Below, in pieces: positions 1,338 through 64,000 of a stretch of 64,000 nucleotides of DNA. A program made the translations under genes and the position numbers. Below the pieces are notes generated by a model. It made no database searches. It saw only the letters and a list, made by a program, of their open reading frames with translations, and was not told the DNA's origin. The number at the start of each line of letters is the position of its first letter. The first letter of the stretch is position 1. This DNA comes from Eledone cirrhosa (lineage: Eukaryota), in the NCBI GenBank assembly GCA_964016885.1, contig OZ024740.1, positions 198,710,001 through 198,774,000 on the forward strand, in the 5' to 3' direction.

Positions 1338-2476
1338 GTTATTCACAAAAGGCTTGATGAAATTGTTGGAGATCCCCCCAAAATGGCATATCCTTTTGGA
1401 AAAATGAATCTTCTTTTGTTTGGTGATTTGATGCAATTGCCACCTGTAAATGAAAAACCAGTATTTTCTAGAATTTCATCATATGATGCCAAAAGAACAG
1501 AAATTGGCATTAGTGAGCATTCATTGTGGAAATACTTTCAATGTGATGAGCTAACCATTAATATGAGACAAAAAAACGACAAAGACAACTAAGTTGATAT
1601 TTTGGGAAGAATTAGGATTGGTTCCCCATCAGACTCTGATATTAGCATTCTTAAAAAAAGATGCCTATTTCATGATAGAAAAGCATCTGTTGAAGAAATT
1701 GCTAAAATATTGATTGAATTGTATTCTATTCCTGAATGTGTATGCATTTTACCTTTGAATGAAGCTGTTGATGAGTTGAATAATGAAACGATTAAAAAAT
1801 GCAACATAAATGCAGTGAAACTTGCTGCAAAAGATTCTGGTATGAGACAAGTAAATGGAAGAAAACTAAAAAATGTTGAAAAAGGCAAAAACAAGAAAAC
1901 CTCTGATACTGCTGGACTAAGAACATTGCTAAATGTTGGAATTGGAGCAAGAGTGATGTTGAAACGAAACATTGATGTAGATCAAGGTTTATGCAATGGT
2001 GTTATTTGAACAGTTATTGAATTAATTGGGAATGGAAGCAATGTTGACAAAATGTTGGCGTCTGTTGATACCAAAAAGGACAAACCCATTTCCATTGGAA
2101 GAGTTCAAGCAGACTATAACATTTCTCCTGGTGTTTTTGTCACCAGAACACAATTTCCATTGTCTCTTGCTTACTCTATAACAATTCACAAATCACAAGG
2201 AATTTCTGTGGATAGAATAATTGCTGATTTAGGAAATCATATATTTTCTGATGGTCAAGCTTATGTGGCCCTTTTAAGAACCAGAAAACTTTGCAATGTG
2301 ACTTTGATCCAAGATCATTGATCATGGTTGACAGATCTGCATGGAAAGAGTACAACAAACTACGGGCTAGTGCTGGAAGAGCAGATTTTCCTCCATTGCC
2401 ACTTGCAGGGAAAAGCATCCTTGCATGGCAAATGCTTCTAGCATGCCCAAGAAAAGAACTAAAAGACTTGACTTAA
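1338..2476 (+). pseudogene. PIF1-family helicase C-terminal half of a Helitron/Helentron-like transposon, disrupted by stops and frameshifts
   Basis: Motifs IHKRLDEI, PFGKMNLLLFGDLMQLPPV, ELTINMRQ, RIRIG, GARVMLKRNIDVDQGLCNG, RTQFPLSLAYSITIHKSQG, GQAYVAL in successive ORFs 1383-2321. Confidence 0.9.
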
Positions 2477-2477
2477 T

Positions 2478-3389
2478 TTGGAAGAAAATTCAAACCAACC
2501 TGCCAAAAAGAAGAAAAGAAAAGAAAACAGCCAAACTAAACATCAATTGATCAACCAAAGAAATGCTTGCTTTGCAAATTCAGCTGTGCAATCACTGAAT
2601 CAATTGCCTGAATTTGTAGAGTATTTGCATAATTTTAACAACATGAATGGAGTATATCAAGATTTAAGCAATATCATTTTTAATAATCATAATAATGTCT
2701 CTAAGTTAAGAAGAAGAATTGGAGGAAGATTTCATGATAGAAATCAGAAATGTGCTCATGAATTTTGGAAAGAACTCTCTCTCTCTCTACATTTGGACTT
2801 GGTATTTAGAGAAAAACTTCAATTTATTCAAGCTGATCATACTAGATACATCCGATTGCATCAAACAAATTGCCAAGCTTTAAATAACAATGTTTGCAAT
2901 TGTAATTCAAGACCTGGATGTGGTATAGAATCTGAACTTCCATTTCAAATAAAAGAGGATTTGATATTAAATCCTATTAATGGTACACAATAATTTAAAT
3001 CTCTACTTTCAACAACAGATACTTTGACTAAATACTGTGATACTTGTTCTGAAAATACTGAGCATCAAATAACTTCTAGAATTGAATTTACTAACGATTT
3101 CAAATATCTTGTCATCTCAATTAGTAGATTTTTGATTCATAATGAAGGAGAACAAAGAATTAATTGTGATATTATGAACTTTAGCTAAAAAAGCAGCAAA
3201 TATGTGGCACAAATTTCACATTAAAAGCTGCTATTCTTCATGAAGGAGTATTATCTAAGATTACTTGTCTGGTAAAAAGTGGTGCTGAAAATTGTGATGA
3301 AATTAGTGACAACATTATAAAAAAAAAGGCACAATAAAGTTCCTCCTAAGTTAGCTAATGCGGTTGTATTGTTTATGGACAACATTTAG
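2478..3389 (+). pseudogene. USP/peptidase C19-like cysteine protease domain following the helicase, disrupted
   Basis: Cys-box NQRNACFANSAVQSL, QKCAHEF (QQDAHEF-like), CDTC, YLVISISRF, AAILHEG near the expected His-box; preceded by basic NLS-like PAKKKKRK. Confidence 0.7.
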
Positions 3390-8589: not shown

Positions 8590-9212
8590 GTATGTATGTA
8601 TGTATACGTACATACATATATGTATACAGACGTACAGTAGTATGTATATATATACATACATGCACACATATATATATGCACGTATCGGTTTACCGAACAT
8701 TTATTATAATGCTCGGTTTGTTTGTTTGTAAACAAACAATAGCCTGAATTACGCCGTACAGTGTTTAGGCAACCACGTCACCTTTTTGTTCAACACTGAC
8801 ACAGGAACGATGTACTAGTTTCAAGCTTATTAGCTATCGTCAGCATCGTATACCTTCCTGCCAGATGGTTGAACGTCTGAAAGTATATACTTTCCTTGTG
8901 CATATTAACGGCTGAGCAGCCTAATTTTCATATCGAGTAAGTTCAGTCGGCAGGGCACACCGAAAACGATAAATGGAATAGAATAGAATGAATGGAATGG
9001 AATAGTACATCGTTCCTGTGTCAGTGTTGAACAAAAAGATGACGTGGTTTCCTAAAACACTGTACGGCGTAATTCGGGCTGTTTGTTTACAAACAAACAA
9101 ACCGAGTATTATAATAAATGTTCGGTAAACCGATACGTGCATATATATATGTGTGCATGTATGTATATATATACATACTACTGTACGTCTGTATACATAT
9201 TTATATGTACGT

Positions 9213-20260: not shown

Positions 20261-21199
20261 TATATACACGCACGCATATACATGGGCAAGCGGACATATA
20301 CATAGATACACACTCATATACATACACCCACATACATTCGAAGCACATAAACAGAGAAATATACCGTTCATTGGTGAACCTTTTGTGACATTATACAATA
20401 CATGAATCAAATAGCTGTTGACAGAATTTCAATATCAAAGAATTATAATTCCCAAGCATCAATACATTTATTTTCATATGGAGGGTACGGAATATGTATT
20501 CCATATTTTCAACGTAAGGGCTTCATTTTCTGAGAATGAAAATGATATTGTATTATCAACGTTTATTTTCCCCTCTTGTTCTTATCAGTGAGTTTGCAAT
20601 ATCAAATATATTCGCTCAAACTAGTACTCAAACTTACACTTTCTAAGGAAATGGCAGAGTCGCTAGATCGTCGGAGGTATGGTTTCTTGTTATACGTTCA
20701 AACTCTTTGCGCTCTGAATACAAACCTCACCGAAGTCATCTTTGCTTTTCATTCTTTTTAGGTCAATGAATAAACTACCAGTCCAATTTTGATGTTGATT
20801 CTTTTTCTATATATCATTCACACATTTCCCTGTACCATAGACGTAAAAAAACCCCGACATTGAATACTTTACGTAATTTAAGTCATGATAATTCAGACTG
20901 TAAATAAAACCCTTTTTTGTACTGTTGACATATGTTATTCTTCACTTTTTGAATATTATTATTACTCCAAGATAAACTTACATAGGAAAAGAAGTGAAAT
21001 CATAAACTCGCCACCTACGTAACCCCATTGTTGAATCAAACAACGCCGTACGCTAAAACTATCCATAATACGAAGTATTCACAACCTCTAACTGGATTAC
21101 CTAAAACGATATTTTGTTATCCCTTATATATATATATATATATATATGAAAGACGTAAATAAGAAAGTTATGAAAATTGACTTACTTACTAAAATTTCA

Positions 21200-21278
21200 C
21201 TCCAACTAATTAGTTTCTGTAAGGGGATAACTATGGTTACGGAGCGTATCCATAGAGAAGCCTTACATCATCAGGGAG
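21200..21278 (-). ncRNA. Type I hammerhead ribozyme (retrozyme copy 1)
   Basis: CUCC CUGAUGA UGUAAGG...CCUUACA GAAAC UAAUUA GUU GGAG: 7-bp stem II base, palindromic stem III ACUAAUUAGU. Confidence 0.93.
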
Positions 21279-21723
21279 TCTATTCTCAGCTAAGCTTCCA
21301 GGCAATGCTGGAACAGTGGGAACTTATATAAAAATAATTCAGTGGATGGAAAAAAGCGAGCGGGGGCTAGATTCCAAGACATTGAAAAATTCACTGCCTA
21401 CTTGGTCAGTGGCAAATTCAAAAGAATCAATCACGTGACACTGAGGTTAATCAGTTAGGAGTGGGGGGTGCTATTAAGACAGAGCCTAGCTACTACTATT
21501 AATCACAGTAGTAATTTCGGCAAGTTTTGCTCAACAAATAATTTGGAGATAATTATAAAGAATTAGTATATCTACCAACATATGTATACAGATGCATACC
21601 TATGTTAGCAAATATATTTTTTGTCTTAGTAACTTTGTGGTTCAATGCAAGGGGATGCAGAACAATTATATGAAAGACGTAAATAAGAAAGTTATGAAAA
21701 TTGACTTACTTACTAAAATTTCA

Positions 21724-21802
21724 CTCCAACTAATTAGTTTCTGTAAGGGGATAAATATGGTTACGGAGCGTCACTATAGAGAAGCCTTACGTCATCAGGG
21801 AG
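21724..21802 (-). ncRNA. Type I hammerhead ribozyme (retrozyme copy 2)
   Basis: Same motif 524 nt from copy 1; C.A at the first stem II pair. Confidence 0.9.
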
Positions 21803-22104
21803 TCTATTCTCAGCTAAGCTTCCAGGCAATGCGGGGACACTGGGAACTTATATAAATATAATTCAGTGGATGGAAAAAAGCGAGCGGGGGCTAGATTCCA
21901 AGACATTGAAAAATTCACTGCCTACTTGGTCAAGTGGCAAATTCAAAAGAATCAATCACGTAACACTGAGGTTAATCAGCTAGGAGTGAGGGTTATTTTC
22001 AATGTCTTGGAATCTAGCCCTCGCTCGCTTTTTTCCATCCACTGAATTATTTTTATATAAGTTCCCAGTTTCCCCGCATTGCCTGGAACTTAGCTGAGAA
22101 TAGA

Positions 22105-22183
22105 CTCCCTGATGACGTAAGGATTCTCTATGGGGAGGCTACGTAACCATATTTATCCCCTTACAGAAACTAATTAGTTGGAG
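22105..22183 (+). ncRNA. Type I hammerhead ribozyme (retrozyme copy 3, inverted arm)
   Basis: ctcc ctgatga cgtaagg...ccttaca gaaac taatta gtt ggag read directly. Confidence 0.9.
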
Positions 22184-22611
22184 TGAAATTTTAGTAAGTA
22201 AGTCAATTTTCATAACTTTCTTATTTACGTCTTTCATATAATTGTTCTGCATCCCCTTGCATTGAACCACAAAGTTACTAAGACAAAACTTATATATTTG
22301 CTAACATAGGTATGCATCTGTATACATATGTTGGTAGATATACTAATTCTTTATAATTATCTCCAAAGTATTTGTTGAGCAAAACTTGCCGAAATTACTA
22401 CTGTGATTAATAGTAGTGGCTAGGCTCTGTCTTAATAGCACCCCCACTCCTAACTGATTAACCTCAGTGTCACGTGATTGATTCTTTTGAATTTGCCACT
22501 TTATCAAGTAGGCAGTGAATTTTTCAATGTCTTGGAATCTAGCCCCCGCTCGCTTTTTTCCATCCACTGAATTATTTTTATATAAGTTCCCACTGTTCCA
22601 GCATATATATA

Positions 22612-23010
22612 TATTAAAATACAAATATTAATAAAATAGATGTTCTTTTTATCAATTACATTTTATGATACATATTTCAGATGTAGAACAGTACGTCCTC
22701 ATCAGACAAAATATAATGATACATGACATACCCTGACATGTTAAATTGTTAAGATTTAATGGTTAAGATTTAATCTTAACCATTTAACATCTCAGGGTAT
22801 GTCATGTATCATTATATTTTGTCATATGAGCACGTACTTTTGTACAATTGAAATACGTATAATAAAATGTAATTGATAAAAAGAACATCTATTTTATTAA
22901 TATTTGTATTTTAATATTAATAACGCTGGAAAATTATTTTTCCTAGGGTGCTTCCAATCTACTGTAAAACTCATTCTTTGATATGCTCATTGAATATTGT
23001 TTAACTCTTT
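22612..23010. mobile_element. Small two-armed foldback element with hammerhead
   Basis: 22612-22770 is the reverse complement of 22771-22917; the plus arm continues about 90 nt further to (TA)n. Confidence 0.8.
22660..22712 (-). ncRNA. Minimal type I hammerhead ribozyme
   Basis: AUUUUGU CUGAUGA GGACGUA...UACAUCU GAAAU AUGU AUC AUAAAAU; a decayed mirror copy lies at about 22816-22868. Confidence 0.8.
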
Positions 23011-24185
23011 AATATATATATATATATATATAGTACCACCACCAGCCATTCTCTGCATCAACCGCACTATATATCTTAGTGGTTAGAGCTTCGGATTCGC
23101 AATTATAAGCAAGAAACTTTATTTCACGTTCCTCCGTTTTACACAGCTGTAGAAATATGTTTCGAGGTCACTGGTGTCAAGCTGTATCGTCATTTGCCTT
23201 TCCCTAGGAAGGGAAAAATTCTAGGTGCAATTCTCAGAATCGAACTCACAACCTCTCAATTGCAACTGGAGTTCTAAACGATAAGTCATGCGTCTTCAGT
23301 TATGACATTTCTAAATACACACACATGTGTGTGTGTGTGTATTTATACGTTTTCAAATTGCTTATTAATTACTTAATACGATTTTCTAATTTTTATATAT
23401 TTATATTTCTTCTTTTATTTTCGTAATTTACATATGCATTTATATTTATTTTATATATTTTGTATATTTCTAAATAGGTTTTTTTAAATATTATCTTCTT
23501 ATTTCTTAGAAATAGATTCTAGCTTTGGGGTAATTTGAACTCATAAAGCTCAGAGCTGATCAATTGCGAAACACGTGCCAATACTAATATAAATAACCAG
23601 TTGCGATATGAATCGTTGGAAACATTTAGTGTTACTAAGGAACGTGAGAATGTGTACACAACACATGGTGAGTAATGTTATTCTGGAGTTTCACGTGATC
23701 ATCAATCATGACAATAATCGATCATTATTAAAGTTGAACAAATCACGTACAGTACTCAAGGAGAAAGGAAAAAGTGGACATGAGTTCTTGCAAGGATATC
23801 GAACTCCAAATATCTTGGATGTTGGACGAGAGCAAGTAATCCATTACTCCAAGGACCACTTGAACTTTGCTGTCTTTTAGAAGGTTTTAAGCCTGTTCCT
23901 AGAATTGTATACAGTCAGTTGATTTAATAACCATTGGGAAAATTTGAATATCATTATAATCATCTGCATTGGGACGGCTACTTTTCATATTTGAAATATT
24001 TCCAGCGATTATTATCTTAGACGAATGTTTACATATCTAGGTACAGTGCTGAAATATAAACACCGAATATATTTTCCAATCAAAATTTTGTAATATATAT
24101 CTGTACACATTAAGATCATATCCAGTGCAATATTACTTTCCATTGCATGCACTCCATAAATAATATATATATATGAAAATGTTTA

Positions 24186-24280
24186 ACCCCGTCGGTAGAG
24201 CTCAAGCCGTTTCGACGGCTATTTCTGGACTAAATTAGAAGTTTTAGCATGGTAATAACTAGCCGAACTTTTCAAGGGGT
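24186..24280 (-). ncRNA. Type I hammerhead of element A (U3-A8 core; this copy has GAC at the cleavage triplet)
   Basis: ACCCC UUGAAAA G..CGGCUA...UAGCCG.C GAAAC GGC..ACC GAC GGGGU; second copy at 26535-26627 (+) retains GCC GUC. Confidence 0.75.
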
Positions 24281-24875
24281 AATTCCTTATACGGGAAGAT
24301 TGTAGTTGTCAAAAGGATTGGTCAAAATTGTTTGTAAAACACAATTAAATCTTTCATGGCAGTAGGTGGCAGGTGGTGATGGCTGAACTTGCCTGTAGAA
24401 CAATGAGGGAGTGGGTGGAGCCGGTCAAGCGTTGAAAATGAATTCTATGCAGCAAATTCTAAGGAGTGTGTATGAAATTAGGCTAGCTAGAAAGCAGGCG
24501 AAAAAGGATTCTGGAGGAATTTGAGAGTCGGACGTTATAGAATTAAAAGGTTAATAAATTGAGATGAAAGATAATAAATAAAAAAAGGAAAAATAATAAA
24601 TTTAAGTAGTAAAATGTAATAAAAAAATCTCTAGAGTCTAAAGCAGCTGCTATATTTTTATTTAGTATTGCGTTTTCGGCCAATGCTATATACACTTTAC
24701 TGGGGTAGGGGTACTGAGGCTACAAAAGCCCGATCGGCTGCCTCGGTGTAGGCGAAAGAGGAAAAAGGAAAAGGAAGAGGAGAGCGAGTGGAGGGAGTGA
24801 TAAGAAGAGATAAAAGGAAAAGAAAAGAAAAAAGAAAAAAAAGAAAAAATACATCTACATATGTAAGCGAGGTTT

Positions 24876-24950
24876 CCCCTATCGTGTTCGGCAAGTGGGG
24901 AAAAGACGGATGTTGCAGCCATTGTCTACCCACCCGGGTCATGAGAGGGT
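24876..24950 (-). promoter_or_regulatory. SECIS-like stem-loop at the end of the element A ORF
   Basis: CCCUCUC AUGAC C CGGGUGGG U AGAC AA...GUCU UUUC CCCACUUG C CGAA CAC GAUAGGG: helix I, AUGA/GA core, helix II, unpaired AA. Confidence 0.4.
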
Positions 24951-26145
24951 TTGAGGGCGAGGTATGTCCTACGCAATTGGTGTTTACATGCAGTTACAAG
25001 TTCGTCTTTTTTGTTTAGGACTAGGTCCTTCGTGAACAGGATTTGTAATGTTTCCTCCGAGTATAAGTAACATGGACGGCGTCTTCTCGAGTAGGAGTTA
25101 CCCCAGGACAGTAAGCTCCAAGTAAGATTGTATGTTATGTTATTATCTTGGAGGTCCCAGATGTTGCCCGAAAGTGTAGTGGCATGCCGCCGTTCCGAGT
25201 TTCGGAACGTATGTCGGTGCTGGTAGAGCCGGGTCTTAAAGTCACAAGCGTTTAATCCTATAGAGGCTGTGTTGGAGGTTTCCGTCCTCACGTTACATTG
25301 GTAGATCAAGTTAAATTCTCGGCATCTGTTGTTGAGGGGGTACGTAGATCTATCAAGTCAGTTACACCTCCTAGTCGGCTCTCCACTAATGTCTAGGTTG
25401 TTTCTTCCATAGGGGTTGAGTTTCTTGTTGTCTGAGGAGGCGATATTTTGTGCGAAGTTGGGTGTGGCGCTGTAGGAGAGTTTGATAGTGTTTTTGTTGA
25501 TCATGATGTGGTATCTGTGTTGTGGTGGGAAGTGTTTTTCGAGGAGCCTAAAGAAGATTTTTCCGATTGGTGTTGCCACCTCGGCATTGTAGCGACGGTT
25601 GAACCACGTTACGTGGCGTGAGCGGCGGCGTCGCCTGCTATTTCCGCTAAGGAAAGCTAAATAAAAGGAGATTTCCTCCCGAAAGCCGCTTCGCTTGAGG
25701 GCCTGGTTGTTTACGGACAAGATCTGTACTACTGGGGTTGTAGCCTTTTAGGGTAAGGAGCCCAACCTCTCGGTACAATCCACCGCGGAATGCAGGAAAC
25801 ATTTCGGTGAGTTTATATAGTAAGAATAATCCTATAAGATCGGTCACCTCAACCGAATCGGTGGAGCCCATACTGACGTCGAAGGGGGAGTCGGGAGCTC
25901 TCTTTATCCACTTGGAGTTGTCTAAAAGGAGGACTGTCTTTCTGGCGTGGAGAATGATGTTTCTTTCCTAGTCGGTGATGGGTGTGAGTGTTTCGGCAAA
26001 GTCCAAAGCGGCGTAAGGAGCGGTAAGGTAATAGAGGCGTAATAGCTCTCTATGTCGAACTGGATGAAGTTGGTGTCCTATTGGTTCTCAAAATTCCTGA
26101 ACCATGAGATGACTTCCTGGGTGCCACCCCAGTAAATTATGTATA
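24926..26145 (-). pseudogene. Element A RT + zinc-finger + GIY-YIG endonuclease ORF remnant
   Basis: ORFs 25647-25871, 25358-25720 and 24926-25309; the last two are in frame across a single TGA at 25358-25360. Confidence 0.9.
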
Positions 26146-26718
26146 GCCTTGGCCGAAAACGCAATACCAACTAAAAATATATTTAGACTCTAGACATTTT
26201 TTTTATTACTTTTTACTATTTAAATTTATTATTTTTCCTTTTTTTATTTATTATCTTTCATCTCAATTTATTAACCTTTTAATTCTATAATGTTCCACTC
26301 TCAAATTTTTCCAGAATCCTTTTTCGCCTGCTTTCTAGCTAGCCTAATTTCATACACACTCCTTAGAATTTGCTGTATAGAATTCATTTTCAACATTTGA
26401 CCGGCTCCACCCACTCCTCATTGTTCTACAGCTAGGTTCAGTCACCCCCACCCCCCACCCACTGCCATGAAAGATTTAATTGTGTTTACAAACAATTTTG
26501 ACCAATTCTTTTGACAACTACAATCTTCCCATATACCTTGAACAGTTCGGCTATTTATTACCATGCTAAACATTTTAATTTAGTCCAGAAATAGCAGTCG
26601 AAACGGCTTGAGCTCTGCCGTCGGGGTTAAATATTTTCCTATTACCCACTCTAATCCCCTAAGTATTGAGTACTCTGGTGCGTTATGGTCCATCTGGTTC
26701 CTTACCACTCCTCCTTCG

Positions 26719-26886
<168 letters not shown>

Positions 26887-27867
26887 GTGTATATATATAT
26901 GGGGGTGGATGTATGTGTGTGTATTCTTACATGTATATACATATATCCCAGTACAACCTGTCTTATGGTCGGGTCGTTGGCGACTAAACTGGCAACCCCG
27001 CCAAGGTTTCTTGGTGAGGAGGGTGACTTTGGACATCCTGCAGGACTAAAAACAAAACCTATCAAAGGGCAAAGGAACTCTTAAGAGTCAATGGCCATTC
27101 AAAATCACCGGGAGAGATGACCCATTAGCCTTTGTCAAGGCAGAATTCTAGGAGAAGGAAAACTCTGATATAACAACTGCAACCCTGATGGTATCCAATG
27201 ATGTTGACTTGTTTTCTTTTTGGTAAATATCATCTTGGTTAAGAGAGTGGGACTGGCTTTGTGCAGTGCCTTTGGTCACTATAAAAGCTTCACGGCACAG
27301 GCATTGCTTTATATCTGGAGATCTCTCTGCACTTGTCGTCACATGGTACCATGGGCCCAGCACTACGTGTCAATAATTGTCACAAGTGTAGTGTTTGTAC
27401 CAGAATTTTCAAGTCGCTGGCTGGACTAAAAAGTCACACTCGTTCAGCCCATCGGTAAGGGTTCTCCCACATGGATATAAAGTAGTGGCCGTACTCGAAA
27501 ACGAGTTGGCAGCCACCATATACACATATATACTACCACGCTCCCATTTGTTTGTGTGTGTATGTCTGTGTGGCCTCTATCACTCCATTCAAGGAAAACT
27601 TCCTTCTTCTTATCTAGATTTATTTTGCTGTTACAATTGTTTTGTCATTAAAAATATATTTCCTAGTATGTTAAGATGCATTAGAACTATACACCGATAT
27701 ACATGTAAATAGGAAAAAAATATTGAGAATGAAATATTTAATACAAAATCGGATGCTGTTTTTCTAAATTGAAAGACGATACACCATTTTTATCTTTCTT
27801 ACTCTAATAGACATCTGAATATTATGTTGATTTTTCTCTAATAGACATCTGAACATTATGTTGATTT

Positions 27868-37558: not shown

Positions 37559-37708
37559 GATAAATCTACCAAGAGTTTACGGTAGTGTCCAATCCGTATG
37601 AAGAACTCAATGTAATCCGGATATCATGGAAAGAAGAGATGCAATGAAAAATCACTTTCGGTGAAAGATAAACGGAATACAGAGTCAAGATAAAATATTT
37701 AAAAAATA

Positions 37709-38566
37709 ATGAATAAAACAATGAAAACTCCTAATAAACAAGATAAAACACCTAAATCTACAAATCTAACTAAAAATGTGCGTGGTGAGATCATTAACAT
37801 TAATCCTCCTAGTAAACATCACGATACAACCTATACAAATAATAAACAACATAGAAACCGTAATAGACGAGTTACTTGGTATAATGCTCCATTTAATTTA
37901 CAAATTAAGGATAATATTGCTAAAAAATTTTTTTATATCCTAGAGAAAAACTTCCCGCCAAACCACAAATACCATCAAATCTTAAATAGGTCTACAATTA
38001 AATTCTCATACTCAACAACAAATAACATAAAACAAAATATAAGTGCCTATAATGCATATAAATGTAGGAATACCATAAGTATACCACCAATACATCAAAC
38101 TAACCATAATATCTCCTCAAATACAGAATTAACGAAAGGTTGTAACTGTAGAAACAAAGCAAACTGCCCATTAAAAGGAAATTGTCTTGTTAACAACATA
38201 GTTTATAAATGTAATGTTAAAACTAAAGATTCTATTTGCTCATATATAGGAGCTACTTCTAACAATTTTAAGGTAAGGTTTAATACCCACAAACATAGTT
38301 TTAAAAATGCCGCACTGGCTAATACAACATCTCTAGCAGAAAAAATCAATAGTTATAAAAATAAGAATATAGAATATGATATGACCTGGAGTGTGCTCAA
38401 AAGAGCCACCCCTTATCAAAATAATAGAAATGAATGTAGATTATGTTCCCAAGAGCTATTTGAAATAATGAAATCTAAGGATATCCTATTAAATAAACGA
38501 CAGGAATTAATTATATCGTGTAATCATAAACTAAGAAAAACATTTAAATATTATAAACCTAATTAA
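37709..38566 (+). CDS. Open 285-aa Naiad-type linker + CxCx5Cx5C zinc finger + GIY-YIG endonuclease (no RT)
   Basis: RNRRVTWYNAPF, KNFPPNHKYH, IKFSYS, CNCRNKANCPLKGNC, IVY..YIG, FKVRFNTH, CRLCSQE, LLNKRQE. Confidence 0.8.
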   Translation: MNKTMKTPNKQDKTPKSTNLTKNVRGEIININPPSKHHDTTYTNNKQHRNRNRRVTWYNAPFNLQIKDNIAKKFFYILEKNFPPNHKYHQILNRSTIKFSYSTTNNIKQNISAYNAYKCRNTISIPPIHQTNHNISSNTELTKGCNCRNKANCPLKGNCLVNNIVYKCNVKTKDSICSYIGATSNNFKVRFNTHKHSFKNAALANTTSLAEKINSYKNKNIEYDMTWSVLKRATPYQNNRNECRLCSQELFEIMKSKDILLNKRQELIISCNHKLRKTFKYYKPN

Positions 38567-53500: not shown

Positions 53501-53563
<63 letters not shown>

Positions 53564-53566
53564 TTC

Positions 53567-56500
53567 ATTCAGGTTTGAGGTTCACCACTGAATAGAGCTG
53601 GTCAATTCCGTATGGTCAATCTTAACGTAATAATATGGAGAGTACTCAACGTAAAGCAGTTCAACCGTCTTTATTTTTGTAGTTGGTGGTGCTAGTACGG
53701 AGTTAAATTATATAATGAAATGACAGGAGGCTGGACTTGTGTAAATCCTTGAAAGGTTTATTATACTATGATCATTTCAATGACCGGGTTCCGTATGAAT
53801 CCGGTGATATCATCAGGTATTCGAAATATAATAAATAAGTGAATGTAATGGATAAAATCCATGGGGCTGAAAATCGAAGACCCGAGGACGACCGCCATCC
53901 AGCATCTTCCACCTTTGGCGGTCGCCCTCGAGTGACGTGGCTAAAGCTTACAGTGTGCTGCTACCGGTCAAATTAAAGAAAACAGAAAGGGATAGGAACA
54001 TAAGTCAGCGTTATTATCGTGCCACAAGAAAAAAGAAAGAAAGAAAGAAAGAAGATAGAAGAAGAAGGGGGAAGGAAAAAGAAAGAAAGAAAGAATAGAG
54101 AAGAAGGGTGAAGGAAGAAAAGGAAGAAGAAGAGAAGTCAGGGTTAAGGTCAGCTATAAGAAGAAAGACAGAAAGAAGGAGGAGGAAGGGTCGGTATTAC
54201 AGTCAGGCCAGGAATGTCGCGAAAAAAATTTATTCTTAGGTATCTTAACAACTACTACCGGTCAAATATAGGCAAACAAAAAGGGGGAGGTAAGTCAGCG
54301 TTAATATCATGCCACAAGGAGAAAGACAGAAAGAAGGGGGAAGAGAAGAAGAAAAGGAAGAAGAAGAGAAGTCAGGGTTGATGGCTACAAGAAGAAAGAT
54401 GGAAAGAAAGAGGAAGAAAGGTCGATATTAATGTCAGACTACAGTCAGGCCAGGAATGGCGCGAAAATATATTTTCAAAGGGACCCGTATCTTAGCAGAG
54501 GTAAATATAGTGGGGGTCTGTATGTTATAATGTGTGAGCAGAAGATTGGGACGTTACATTTTTGTTTAGATTTATAGGATGAAGTTAAAGATTAATATTT
54601 AATATTAACATTATAAAATTAAAGAAATTAGAAAATTGAAAGTTAAACAGTTTAACATTTTTAAGGTTGCGAGGTTTAAGCAAAGAAAGAGTATATGAAG
54701 AAACTTAAATTTTATTATAGAGTAAAGATTATGTCTTTGTTTAGCCGTCAAACAGCATGCGGCGACCACAAGCTTGCGCAGCCCGTCACTCCGAGTGATA
54801 TGGCCTAGCGAAAGATATGGAAATCGATTTTTACGAGCACTCTAGGAATGTATAACAGGCTTCAGGTGCGCCAGCAGGAAGTCAGCCCGCATTGTTAGGC
54901 CATCCTTGTACAAAACCAGTACTATTCCTTTACCCAGGAGGGGAATTTGCTTAAGTAGAGGGAGGCGTGATACATCTAATAGTTCTGATTTCATCTGTAG
55001 TTCTGATTTCATCTGTAATTTAAAGGTACTATATTGCGGTCAAAAAACCGGCTGCGCACCGGGTCCCCGGGGAGAGTCAAACCACTCCGAGTAGTTTCAT
55101 TTACCGAAAGAAGGGGAAATTTATTTTTCCAAGCACTCAAGGCAGGCCTATGCGCGAGGGGTCCCGTCCCGCCGCCAGGAAAACCAACCCAACACTCCGA
55201 CAGAAAGTTGGAACGTTAAAATATAGTTTAGATTTATAGGATGAAGTTGAAAGAATTCAGAATAACATTATAAAATTAAAGAGTAAGAAGATTGAGAATT
55301 GAACAAATAGAACATTGAAAATTATACATTTAAAAAATTAAAAAAACTTTTTTAAGGTTTTGAGTTTCGGGGTTTAGTTAAAGAGAGTCTTTTATGAAGA
55401 AACGTTCATTCTATTATATAGATCCTCTATAAGTTATCCTAGTGGGATGTAGAGTAAGGGATATAATCGGGTAATATTTATTTTTGTTCTCAGGGTGAGA
55501 CATTCTAGTGTCGTGTGCTAATGGGTACAAGTGAGTAACAGTCCCAATAAGAGGAGTAGAAATACATGGACACATAGAAGTAGAATACGTGGAAAAGCAC
55601 ATTAATAAAGCAAAGGTATAAATATATAAATAAACCAACAAGAGTGGTGGTGGAGTAAGATGGAGAAATCAAGACATAGGAGAAATACAATATAGTTCAG
55701 GTTGCAGTATTTATGTTCCCAGGGGGAGACATTCTAGTTTCGTGTGCTAATGTGTACACGCGAGTAAAAGTCTGAATAAGAGGAGTAAAAAGTACATGGA
55801 TGTATAGAAGTAGAATACGCGGAAAAAACATTAATACAGCAAAGGTAGAAAGATATAAAAATATAAATAAACAAACAAGAGTGGTGGTGGAGTAAATGGA
55901 GAGATCAAGACACAGGAGAAATACAATATAGTTCAAGTTGCAGTCAGTTAATACATATAGATCTGGAAATGGAATCAGTGTGTGTTCGAGTCTGAGAATT
56001 CAGTGTGAGTTATACATGCCCTGAAGTATAGGGTAGCGAATTTAGTCAATACAGTACAGTACAATACATGTTGTGGTATAGTCCGTAGAATTTTGTCGAA
56101 GTCTGAATATTCTGAGAGGGGAGTAGCATTGGGCCAGGTGGGCTGTAGGAAAAAACACTGAGTAGCCAAAATCCGAATGGTGGTGAGATATATTCAGTCC
56201 CATGCCGCTGTTCATTATTACATTTGGAAGTGCTCAACATTACAGGAGCATTATTTATTCAGGTTTGAGGTTCACCACTGGATAGAGCTGGTCAATTCCG
56301 TATGGTCAATCTTAATGTAATAATATGGAGAGTACTCAACGTAAAGCAGTTCAACCATCTTTGTTTTTGTAGTTGGTGGTGCTAGTACGGAGTTAAATAT
56401 TATAATGAAATGACAGGAGGCTGGACTTGTGTAAATCCTTGAAAGGTTATTATACTATGATCATTTCAATGACCGGGTTCCGTATGAATCCGGTGATATC

Positions 56501-57532
56501 ATCAAGTATTCGAAATATAATAAGTGAATGTAATGGATTAAATCCATGAGGCTGAAAATCGAAGACCCGAGGACGACCACCATCCAGCATCTTCCACCTT
56601 TGGCGGTCGCCCTCGAGTGACGTGGCTAAAGCTTACAGTGTGCTACTACCGGTCAAATTAAAGAAAACAGAAAGGGATAGGAACATAAGTCAGCGTTAAT
56701 ATCGTGCCACAAGAAAAAAGAAAGAAACAAAGAAAGAAGAGAGAAGAAGAAGGGGGAAGGAAAAAGAAAGAAAGAAAGAAAGAAAGAATAGAGAAGAAGG
56801 GTAAAAGGAAGAAAAAGAAGAAGAGAAGTCAGGGTTAAGGTCAGCTATAAGAAGAAAGACAGAAAGAAAGAGGAGGAAGGGTCGGTATTACAGTCAGGCC
56901 AGGAATGTCGCGAAAAAAATGTATTCTAAGGGACCCGTATCTTAACAACTACTGCCGGTCAAATATAGGCAAACAAAAGGCGGAGGTAAGTCAGCGTTAA
57001 TATCATGCCACAAGGAGAAAGACAGAAAGAAGGGGGAAGAGAAGAAGAAAAGGATGAAGAAGAGAAGTCAGGGTTGATGGCTACAAGAAGAAAGATAGAA
57101 AGAAAGAGGAAGAAAGGTCGATATTAATGTCAGACTTCTCTCTTCTTTCTTTCTTTCTTTCTTTTACCATCCTCCTTCTTCTTCTCTCTTCTTTCTTTCT
57201 TTCTTTCTTTTTTCTTGTGGCACGATAATAACGCTGACTTATGTTCCTATCCCTTTCTGTTTTCTTTCATTTGACCGGTAGTAGCACACTGTAAGCTTTA
57301 GCCACGTCACTCGAGGGCGACCGCCAAAGGTGGAAGATGCTGGATGGCGGTCGTCCTCGGGTCTTCTATTTTCAGCCTCATGGATTTTATCTATTACATT
57401 CACTTATTTATTATATTTCGAATACCTGATGATATCACCGGATTCATACGAACCCGGTCATTGAAATGATCATATTATAATAAACCTTTCAAGGATTTAC
57501 ACAAGTCCAGCCTCCTGTCATTTCATTATAAT
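53567..57532 (-). mobile_element. Large non-coding HHR-bearing element: 2.69-kb unit, about 875-nt direct repeats and an inverted arm
   Basis: 53567-54440 is repeated at 56257-57136; 57137-57532 is an inverted copy of about 53710-54105; three HHR copies; no RT/EN homology seen. Confidence 0.88.
53763..53820 (-). ncRNA. Type I hammerhead ribozyme (other copies: 56452-56509 minus with C3U; 57422-57478 plus)
   Basis: AUAC CUGAUGA UAUC-ACCGG...CCGGU-CAUU GAAAU GAUC AUA GUAU; palindromic stem III AUGAUCAU. Confidence 0.85.
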
Positions 57533-57547
57533 ATTATATATATATAT

Positions 57548-61001: not shown

Positions 61002-64000
61002 CAAAATAAAGATCCGAAGGCATGATATAAATTTCCAATCATTTTAATCACGACACATGTTTCAATAAGAGATAGATCGATCGTGTAGCCATGATCGATT
61101 ATCACTGATCTCGTCAGGTGAAAATGAATTGTTTTCAAATCCTTGATATGAGGGAGAAAAATTAACGATGTTCACTCACAGAGTTTAGTCCCTCATATGA
61201 AGATCAAGCAGTCAAAAGACGGCGACTGCTATCGTCTTCAGTTAGGGTCATAACACTATCAAGTCTCTATCTCCCAATAGCTGTAAAAGACGCTAGACAT
61301 CACTCAAATCTGTAGAATTACAGTTGGTCACAGTTAGTGTGAGTGAGTACACACACACACTCACACACACCGACGCGAGGTCAAAGAAAACATATATAAA
61401 TATACCAACATAGTATTCATCGAAAGTTAGTTTACAAAACAACAAATGTTATAATGGTCAAATCCCAATTTGACGATGTAAATTTGAAAAATTGGGTCAA
61501 GCGCAATCCTATACAAACGCAAGTAAGTTCAGTTCAATGCTCTGCTATACTTGTATAGATTGAATTGTAACGTCGGTATCTCCAAATAGTGTATATTTTG
61601 GTATATACACATACGTATCGTCCAGAAAAGTTATGTTTTTGTATATACGCATCCGTGTGAAGAGCAAGTAGTCAGCTCATATCGAATTCAGTATGTGCCG
61701 TTGTCCTGTTGAGAATTTGAGTCCCCAAATCTGTGCGTGCAAGCAACCACTATGCAGGCCACCAAGGGGCTCTGTGTATAGTTGGGTATTTGGGTTAAGG
61801 TGTCAGTATGTGCGTTTTCCCGCCATATGGGCCCTTGGGCTTTTAAGATAGGTGTTTGAGTGGTGGTGGTGTGTTATCCAACACAAACATAAAATAAAAT
61901 AAAATAAAATAACAAAGAATAGCAAAACCCAGAGGATGTGTGTAGGCCCATTAATGGTGTGTAAGTGTTATTGTCCAATATGTACCCGTGTGTACTCCAT
62001 GGTTAGATGATCACGGATCAAAACCTAGTGTAGTGTTCAATCGATAGGAACGTGACCAGTCATAACTGTGGGAACTCCGTGTCTAAAGAAACCGGGTACT
62101 GTGTGTAGAGTTATGTATAGAGAGCGTAATTGGTCTTAACTGAGTGTGTAATACGTCTAGCTATATCCTAAGCGAGAGAGCTCAATGGATAGGGCATCCT
62201 AAACTAATGGTGAATGTGCGTGATCGGTCTTTCCTGAGTGTGTAATCATTCTAACTATTTACTAACTAGGTATTCTAATGTGCAATCAATCTGTGAGAAC
62301 TCTGTGGAAACAGACCGAGTACCGTTTGTAAGTCCGCAAACAATCTTAGCTGTCTAACTACCTGAGTGTGTGATTGTCTGTTTTTTTGCTAATTTAGAGA
62401 ACTCTATGGCTAAGGTAGAGAGGGAGGACTAGTGGTAGGTTACTTTACACAAATCCTGTGGAAGGTTTTCGAGGTTGTATGTTGGCAATTGCTCAAAAAA
62501 TCGCTCTCCTATTGATTAATAGGGGGCTGCCTCTAATAATATTAAAAGTTTCAGCTATTCACAAATTAGAGACGCCCGTGCTGCTGTTATATGGCTGGGC
62601 TGAGCAAATTATGGACCAGGATAAGGATTGCTCTATATTATGTTGTTTAAGTTTCCAGTCTAATTCAGAAAGCGCCGTGCTATTTTTTTTATCTAATCTA
62701 TTAAAGGTGTGGCTGTGATTATACCATATATCCTTAAATTCATTGGCAGTTTCCCCAACACACCTGAAGGTTCTATCTAAAGTGGAGACCTTACAGTCGT
62801 AGACTACGTTTTTGGTGAGGCATTTCCCAGCCATGGGGCAAGTGGCAGTTTTCCTGCAATTACATTTTCTGTTATCGACCTGGGTAGTTCCAGAGGAACC
62901 ACGGTACCTCTGAGGTCGGGTCTCAGTTCTTGTCTGCTCTATGGGTAATTTTCCAGGGGTCGGGGTGGGTGACCCGACTCGCCTCACGTGAATCAGTCCG
63001 TTCATCCATAGAGCTGCCATTCTTTCTGCCATGTCTCAACCCCCCCCCCCCCTTGGGTTGTCCTAAGTCTACTATAATTCATCTTAGCTATATTCTGAGC
63101 TATGTTACTGGTTGTGGAGTAGGACAGCTTGATGGTATTCCTATTGAATATTTTATAGTATCTGTGTGATCTAGGGAAGCATTTGTCTAAGGCCCTAAAA
63201 CAAAGCTTAGCTATACTAGTGGTCAGGCCGGTGGAGTAAGGGGGGGGGGGGGTACCACAGGCTTTTTCTGGTCCGATGCCTCTTGTTCTTACTATCCATA
63301 CTAGAGTTACCTGCCTACTTGGTTGCTACTGGTCTATTATATCTGAAAACTGCCTGTGGATCGATGGTGTCTTGGGATGTCTCGATTGTGTTCGGAATCG
63401 TCCCAAATCTCGGAGGCGGTGTATCCCCCGTGCAGTTATTGGGATTACCCTCGATAGCCGGGGTTATATCCACTATGCGCCTGCTACATTTATCCCTATT
63501 CCCTCTATCCGACCCCCGTTCCATTTTAGGTTCAACGGTTGTTTTATCAGTTCTACAATTAAGGTTACAATTACAGTTTCCGCTGGCATTACGGTGCTCA
63601 GACCCCATGTTTGTACCTGGGTGATTGTTTCCATTGGTACCTTCGACATTGGGACTATGAGGCAATACAACATGAAGTCTATATTGATCCTCCCTCGCAT
63701 CCCGCCTGCTGTTAATTAAAGTGTCACTATTTTGGCCTAAGCTATCGCAGGCAATGTTGCTACTACTATTTAATGGACGTTTGAATGAGATTCCCTCGCT
63801 ATGCCCCGCGCGTTCCAGCGCTCTATTATAGTAATTCTAGATACTATCAAAAGTATCTTCATTGGAAGATAGTCCTGAAATTCTACTAGAGACGCGTTTG
63901 GTAATACCGTTAGTGACTATTCTAGGGTGGTTCGATTTTGCGTTGACCTAATTTAAATTCTCGTTTGGTTTGTGGTATGGTTGGAAGATTCCTGAATTGA
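60998..64000 (-). mobile_element. Penelope-like element D (Naiad-type), runs off the window; decayed RT thumb + zinc finger + GIY-YIG, 3' region with hammerhead
   Basis: QPYHKPN, SNHP, LSSNEDTF, YNRALERAG; KCFPRSHRYYKIFNRNTIKLSYS; CNCRKTATCPMAGKC; VVY..CVGET; STALS; stops and frameshifts. Confidence 0.92.
61048..61121 (-). ncRNA. Type I hammerhead ribozyme (element D)
   Basis: UCAC CUGACGA GAU...AUCGAUC/GAUCGAU...AUU GAAAC AUGU GUC GUGA; canonical GUC triplet. Confidence 0.88.

Follow-up and report, generated by a model that had tools for sequence, protein, structure and literature searches.

Background

What kind of element is the 1.46-kb inverted insertion that lies between (TA)n tracts in this part of the Eledone cirrhosa genome, and which RNA and which enzymes put it there? 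The insertion sits in a 64,000-nt stretch of DNA, here called the window, for which the original prediction named a 524-nt hammerhead retrozyme, that is, a genome-encoded self-cleaving RNA that would circularise and be mobilised by a neighboring Penelope-like RT. Penelope-like elements (PLEs) have already been hypothesized to mobilise animal retrozymes by way of circular RNA (PMC7229834; bioRxiv 10.64898/2026.07.22.740005), and PMC8557442 calls it unclear what the PLE hammerhead does. With a probability of about 0.7, we read the locus as a tail-out inverted insertion of a high-copy non-LTR retrozyme with predicted self-cleavage as a dimer, likely circles, and likely copying in trans by PLE machinery.

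Architecture of the locus

Positions within the unit (q) refer to the 524-nt unit in the sense of the hammerhead ribozyme (HHR), i.e., the reverse complement of 21143-21666. The features of the locus are:

21125..21147, no strand: (TA)n target tract; the left arm, ending in ...CATATA, overlaps it
21143..21666, minus: outer unit A (q1-524), ending 3' at the first of the family's two fixed ends, 61 nt beyond the predicted cut
21199..21279, minus: HHR copy 1, type I, with long two-part stem II and palindromic stem III; predicted cut 21204/21203
21204..21727, minus: predicted 524-nt cut-to-cut monomer or circle, non-coding and strongly folded
21554..21554, minus: q113, second of the family's fixed 3' ends, 174 nt beyond the cut; unused as an end at this locus
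21667..21993, minus: inner unit B (q200-524), 5'-truncated
21723..21803, minus: HHR copy 2; predicted cut 21728/21727
21993..21996, no strand: head-to-head junction where two 5'-truncated arms meet
21996..22240, plus: right arm inner segment C (q279-524)
22104..22184, plus: HHR copy 3; predicted cut 22179/22180
22241..22604, plus: right arm outer segment D (q1-362), with an atypical end and rare variants common to unit A and absent from B and C
22603..22614, no strand: short (AT)n right flank

The insertion is a tail-out inversion, in which the left arm (minus) runs q200-524 then q1-524 and the right arm (plus) runs q279-524 then q1-362. Full and partial units of the left arm are 96% identical at a spacing of 524, exactly the period proposed for a head-to-tail repeat, but the arm holds 1.6 units and not two full ones. 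Tracts of (TA)n were found on both sides, as anticipated, the right one (~12 nt) being shorter than the left (~23 nt). The unit has 36% GC, and its longest ATG ORF encodes 30 aa in sense (left arm) and 87 aa in antisense. In three sequencing runs, which behave like genomic DNA from a single sample and so say nothing about RNA, the unique flank was covered at a depth of 4-11. The locus is poorly suited as a clean source of monomers, as which it had been proposed: judging from the inversion, a transcript of both arms would form a hairpin of ~600 bp in which HHR copy 2 is masked.

Two further observations concern other parts of the window. Inverted arms of 155 nt adjoin the retrozyme at 22606-22922, the left one with an HHR-like motif (minus, core 22705) and the right one with a degenerate motif, which is probably another small HHR element. 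At 2472-2993 (plus), a reading frame that weakly matches ubiquitin C-terminal hydrolase (E 2e-4, under the cut-off) is probably a host exon.

The hammerhead motif

All three HHRs of the locus, two of them on the minus strand 524 nt apart and the third on the plus strand in the inverted arm, as first described, share a 5-bp stem I, the core CUGAUGA...GAAA, a 50-nt stem II, a palindromic stem III, and a GUU triplet after which the cut is predicted (q463). The type I elements CUGANGA, GAAA, NUH, and stems I-III are thus all present. The HHRs of this family are nevertheless non-canonical, owing to one additional nucleotide on either side of G10.1-C11.1; 54 of 56 copies have C facing A here, and copy 1 of the window has a U-A pair. 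An extra 5' base at this place is a known trait of PLE HHRs (PMC4209133), and axolotl HHRs, HHR_Amex2 among them, are described with a basal stem II mismatch (PMC7229834). A covariance-model search, suggested as a check, did not recover the motif: Rfam gave no hammerhead at gathering score anywhere in the 64-kb window and none even at E<=10 in 21000-27000, probably because stem II is long. Copies were also said to differ mainly in stem II, which holds within the HHR, where every difference among the three falls there, and fails over the whole unit, where stem II accounts for 5 of the 14 differences between units A and B. The internal loop of stem II is largely conserved. Elsewhere in the window, at 8805-8852 (minus), there is a minimal HHR with palindromic ACUAGU that recurs in several other loci.

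A conserved, high-copy family

Searching the 3.0-Gb genome with the unit gave 2,327 candidates, and among the 40 that were scored the best were 94-97% identical over the unit. The exact HHR motif pattern had 3,703 genome matches against 0 for a reversed control, so the motif is not a product of chance, and the copy-number check proposed earlier was borne out. Cut-to-cut unit length is 511-594 nt across the family, and 16 aligned units are 71-99% identical. Among loci chosen by whole-unit identity, the core and UH were kept in 49 of 55 full HHRs, and the core varied at 8/790 positions (1.0%) against 513/22,704 (2.3%) outside the HHR and 3.6% in stem II.

Pairing is preserved where sequence is not. 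In an alignment of 48 distinct HHR sequences, 92.9% of 1,148 cells pair, compared with 29-44% in slid controls, and changes on both sides of a pair were found in 50 cells vs 13.9+/-2.9 after shuffling; stems I and III are invariant in these rows, which were picked by a pattern that fixes both stems. The number of covarying pairs (6 vs 5.7 shuffled) shows no excess, so the covariation rests on few inherited subfamily events. Over the consensus fold of 16 units, both partners differ in 20 of 110 pairs, and 15 of these pairs are not in the HHR; this count has no control. Core conservation and compensatory changes in stem II indicate that selection acts on RNA structure. Within loci, stem II is not generally hypervariable, since the two subfamilies go opposite ways (3.2% vs 1.9% in the window subfamily and 0.3% vs 1.5% in subfamily 2).

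Other scans delimit the family. An A>G excess, as a trace of RNA editing, was absent from the window subfamily (29 A>G vs 45 T>C, p 0.42) and weak in subfamily 2 (13 vs 7, p 0.07). Metagenome contigs gave 0 matches to the HHR motif. Short-stem-II variants had 45 matches vs 1 in the control, and we rejected them as a parent form, 44 of the 45 being by eye deletion or older forms of the 524-nt family. At motif level, a CACGTG box does not vary among the 16 units, and the HHR is preceded by a TATA-like tract. At another locus (L103:218-842), three HHRs spaced 312 nt apart mark a second retrozyme-like tandem family, smaller than this one.

With non-coding tandem units, one HHR in each, low GC, high copy number, and no LTR-like arrangement seen in 28 loci, the identity first proposed stands: judged by sequence, the family has every non-LTR retrozyme character that we compared.

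Predicted folding

A lone HHR is predicted to be 2.5-4.2 kcal/mol more stable in an inactive fold, in which CUGAU pairs with stem III, while two copies are predicted to co-fold via the palindrome into a 10-bp duplex with open cores. The proposal that palindromic stem III motifs favor dimeric cleavage thus found a counterpart in a predicted active dimeric fold. The monomer is predicted to fold far better than shuffled sequences (z -7.1 linear and -8.8 circular, 25 shuffles), with predicted pairing over 56-68% of bases in the 16 units, and its post-cut GGAGUG would pair with an internal CACUCC in place of stem I, a pairing kept in the 16-unit consensus fold. Such predicted folds would permit cleavage in multimers and protect monomers or circles. 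The 524-nt RNA probably self-cleaves as a dimer; against this, of nine predicted Xenopus retrozyme dimers, only one cleaved in vitro (bioRxiv 10.64898/2026.07.22.740005).

An insertion signature of Penelope-like elements

Insertions of PLEs are described as leaving partial tandems, inverted copies, and one-sided tails, with targeting of (TA)n (Craig 2021, PMC8557442), and the RT of Poseidon is reported to start at two internal sites downstream of the HHR, which define the genomic tail (Frangieh 2024, PMC11167929). We compared these features with 28 distinct loci, the best full-length matches, after dropping two duplicates (L027, L028) from all counts. Twenty were tail-out inversions, seven were single arms, and one was of another kind; (TA)n lay on at least one side in 26/28 and on both in 19/28. 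Most inversions (17/20, the window locus being among the other three) have the end of one arm at q523-524, ~61 nt beyond the predicted cut, and that of the opposite arm at q113-118 in the following unit, ~174 nt beyond it. Selecting full-length matches favors ends at q524 or beyond, but would not by itself give each arm a different end type. Taken across subfamilies, the spacing between cut and (TA)n falls into two groups, 52-77 and 167-197 nt. The same two-end pattern was found in two PLE families of Hydra type in this genome, at 17-19/97 nt (family A) and 33-43/110-129 nt (family B) past their own HHRs. All of the PLE-type marks are thus present, namely 5' truncation, partial tandem, inverted copy, one-sided tail, and microsatellite target. 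Since two-site ends, inversions, and (TA)n match the PLE signature, the unit bears the mark of PLE machinery, and the family is very probably mobilised by PLEs. At one locus (L014:1501-2552, the same as L047), two different subfamilies stand in tandem, joined by a short TA tract, where one has inserted at the end of the other.

It could be argued that the unit is satellite-like DNA spread by recombination at (TA)n, with the HHR as an inactive relic, as the tandem units would suggest and as inter-arm conversion, which could explain shared variants, would allow. Against such an origin stand the dispersed insertions of 1-3.5 units, whose 3' ends are fixed and whose 5' ends vary, the single end type of each arm, and the compensatory changes in RNA pairs; we regard it as very improbable.

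Candidate partner

The unit itself contains no RT plus GIY-YIG ORF and is hence not an autonomous PLE, and the prediction had assigned its mobilisation to the neighboring Penelope-like RT. The PLE machinery is upheld by the insertion signature; the neighbor is not. Located at 24178-26720, 1.6 kb from the retrozyme locus, it is a broken, 5'-truncated Hydra-type PLE with tail-out inverted pLTRs, and its ORF, internally deleted and with a stop, covers only residues 296-329, 336-437, and 525-784 of an intact relative. Proximity and shared architecture would make it a natural source of RT for the window locus, but the broken ORF contradicts this role, and PLE fragments are common near such loci, so that we find it hardly credible; nor was there any nucleotide match between the neighbor and the unit. 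Its protein is 74-86% identical to that of an abundant family with intact 784-aa frames and 3.53-kb tandem arrays. The HHR of the neighbor's family, missed by the standard descriptor, has a long stem II, a palindromic loop III, and the core UUGAGAA, which we take to be a compensated C3U/G8A pair.

Intact candidates exist elsewhere in the genome. Families A-C have full-length ORFs of 784, 714, and 719 aa, each with its own HHR, and carry RWK (RWR in family A), DKT, a CxCX5C linker, a C-terminal EN, and (TA)n; we assign them to the Hydra clade from motifs read in the intact ORFs against the descriptions in PMC8557442. Pfam returned nothing informative for the PLE frames and no match for family A. 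Three further related families (D-F) were sampled, and the HHR scan of family D loci found none. Within the range of our partner search, six Hydra-type or related families at 88 loci, no sequence shared with the unit was found in families A-C (46 loci, best E 0.096) or in families D-F (42 loci), where the lone match is a retrozyme copy beside a family E ORF. From architecture and target we infer the partner, which is fairly likely to be a PLE of the Hydra clade.

Several other sequences were observed alongside these families. At L043 (G000:C1:437198650-437213199), there are at least 5 tandem PLE units of 3,531 bp, of which the three compared are 99.97-100% identical with open frames, and this near-identity points to a very recent multimeric insertion. 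In the window, 37703-38566 (plus) is a fragment of a young Hydra-like family whose 150 scored copies are 97-100% identical, with frames to 828 aa and no HHR by scan. A long-stem-II HHR family lies near 61117 (minus), close to family F ORF fragments. Between (TA)n tracts at 53559-57535 lies an element of ~2.7 kb period, inverted tail-out, with HHR motifs at 53816 (minus) and 57426 (plus); the HHR is also present in L047, and the interval has no match to three Hydra-type proteins.

A related alternative is that the unit is a detached pLTR of an unfound autonomous PLE, with the copies as its 5'-truncated insertions. End architecture is alike, and Xenopus retrozymes are reported to match PLE pLTRs, with 24/57 families matching known TEs (bioRxiv 10.64898/2026.07.22.740005). 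Yet units of 511-594 nt stand head-to-tail without an ORF between them, the six sampled families give no match, and PLE ORF fragments near 82 retrozyme loci, some of them overlapping, lie at varied positions and on varied strands, all of which makes a detached pLTR unlikely.

Circle or multimer as template

The arm ends lie past the cut site, so the template spans the cut, and a cleaved linear monomer cannot yield such ends; the template is either a circle or an uncleaved multimer. Units of one locus resemble each other closely. In the window subfamily, differences are 2.1% in the same arm, 1.9% between opposite arms, and 3.4% between loci (1.1%, 1.8%, and 3.1% in subfamily 2), and rare variants are shared at 24/252 in the same arm and 49/347 between opposite arms vs 260/33,219 between loci (10-14% vs 0.8%). 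In one arm of ~3 units, identity to the arm's middle unit is 98-100%, and most loci have a unit length of their own (562/562, 544/544, 557/558/557), one locus running 583/579/594 through A/T tracts. Ordered inner-to-outer differences recur in at most two loci in the window subfamily and reach three in subfamily 2, mostly at A/T tracts. This near-identity fits rolling copying of one circle, as in the model of PMC7229834, but the same could be seen if a linear source were homogeneous or if conversion had followed.

The window locus itself is a mosaic, at odds with one monomer circle as its source: the outer units A and D have variants in common at q351/355/358 (found in 2/54 copies) that inner units B and C lack, and its right end is also atypical. 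Its right arm may be a snap-back copy of the left (differences 5/361 for A/D vs 8/245 for B/C, p 0.15). The same haplotype order in both arms (inner B/C, outer A/D) is what a heterodimeric linear template would give and would suit a non-autonomous derivative of a PLE whose templates are linear read-through multimers left uncleaved, with the HHR as a retained fold or switch and circles as by-products. For such multimers, ends past the cut require only uncleaved RNA, and the monomer's predicted minimum-energy fold is inactive. Poseidon PAc offers a precedent, as unprocessed RNA was its main template in vitro and HHR cleavage was dispensable, HHR mutants still inserting (PMC11167929). Against linear multimers, 5' truncation would shrink the arrays in every round unless they were regrown, within-arm units are near-identical with locus-specific lengths, and no shared master-array differences recur. 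We hold this alternative to be a serious one, if somewhat improbable.

In the retrozyme mechanism that we propose, multimeric transcripts would self-cleave as dimers, and the products would likely be ligated into circles. The endonuclease and RT of a PLE, probably of the Hydra clade, would then copy the RNA in trans into (TA)n, where both ends of the cut would prime cDNA at the internal sites ~61 and ~174 nt past the ribozyme cut, one per arm, and cDNA synthesis would cross the ribozyme junction, over up to ~3.5 units, and stop at variable points. That circular RNAs of the family exist is on balance likely, and that a circle serves as the template has close to an even chance. We suggest only tentatively that a single Hydra-type complex primes both (TA)n ends on one circle at the two fixed sites, rolls through the ligated junction, and reads RNA structure rather than shared sequence.

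Relation to known systems

The closest known relatives in kind are the metazoan non-LTR retrozymes of coral, mussel, and axolotl (Cervera and de la Pena 2020, PMC7229834), which like this family are described as non-coding and tandem, with GC <45%, one type I HHR, thousands of copies, palindromic stem III, and coexisting PLEs. They differ from it in unit length (170-400 vs 511-594 nt), whereas the present family has a ~50-nt stem II with an internal loop, forms dispersed short arrays with tail-out inversions in (TA)n (the main text of PMC7229834 contains neither 'inverted' nor 'microsatellite'), and has predicted circles. Its monomer had been called unusually long, which holds against the ~170-400 nt of PMC7229834; the vertebrate retrozymes of Li, Clavereau, and Pollet (bioRxiv 10.64898/2026.07.22.740005) span 51-972 bp, with a ray-finned fish mean of 650 bp, and a 524-nt unit falls within their range. 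Those too are mostly of few units, with PLE mobilisation proposed, and are linked to PLEs by pLTR homology, whereas the present link is the insertion signature, with no homology found.

Hydra-clade and other EN+ PLEs (PMC8557442) and Poseidon PAc (PMC11167929) are reported with the same partial tandems, inverted 5'-truncated copy, one-end tail, (TA)n, and HHR upstream of two ends. The 524-nt family differs in having no ORF and in a tail of ~113-122 nt, vs 30-40 bp published and ~80 nt in families A and B of this genome. Non-autonomous Chlamys elements such as MRC1 are likewise non-autonomous PLEs with head-to-tail insertions; unlike the 524-nt family, they share 3' sequence with autonomous partners, and most are described without canonical HHRs (PMC8557442). 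Class, size, and architecture are each already described, and we did not find the family or its combination of features in the literature, supplementary data such as the HHR files of PMC8557442 lying outside that search.

Conclusions

The 524-nt family ties retrozymes to PLE hammerheads by insertion signature, with mapped candidate priming sites, natural covariation, and intact candidate enzymes, and these together make the question of circle vs multimer directly testable. Its value is that of a test system for the copying of ribozyme RNAs by PLE enzymes: if the single-complex proposal is true, the 524-nt RNA and an intact 714-784-aa ORF of the same genome would reconstitute retrozyme retrotransposition.
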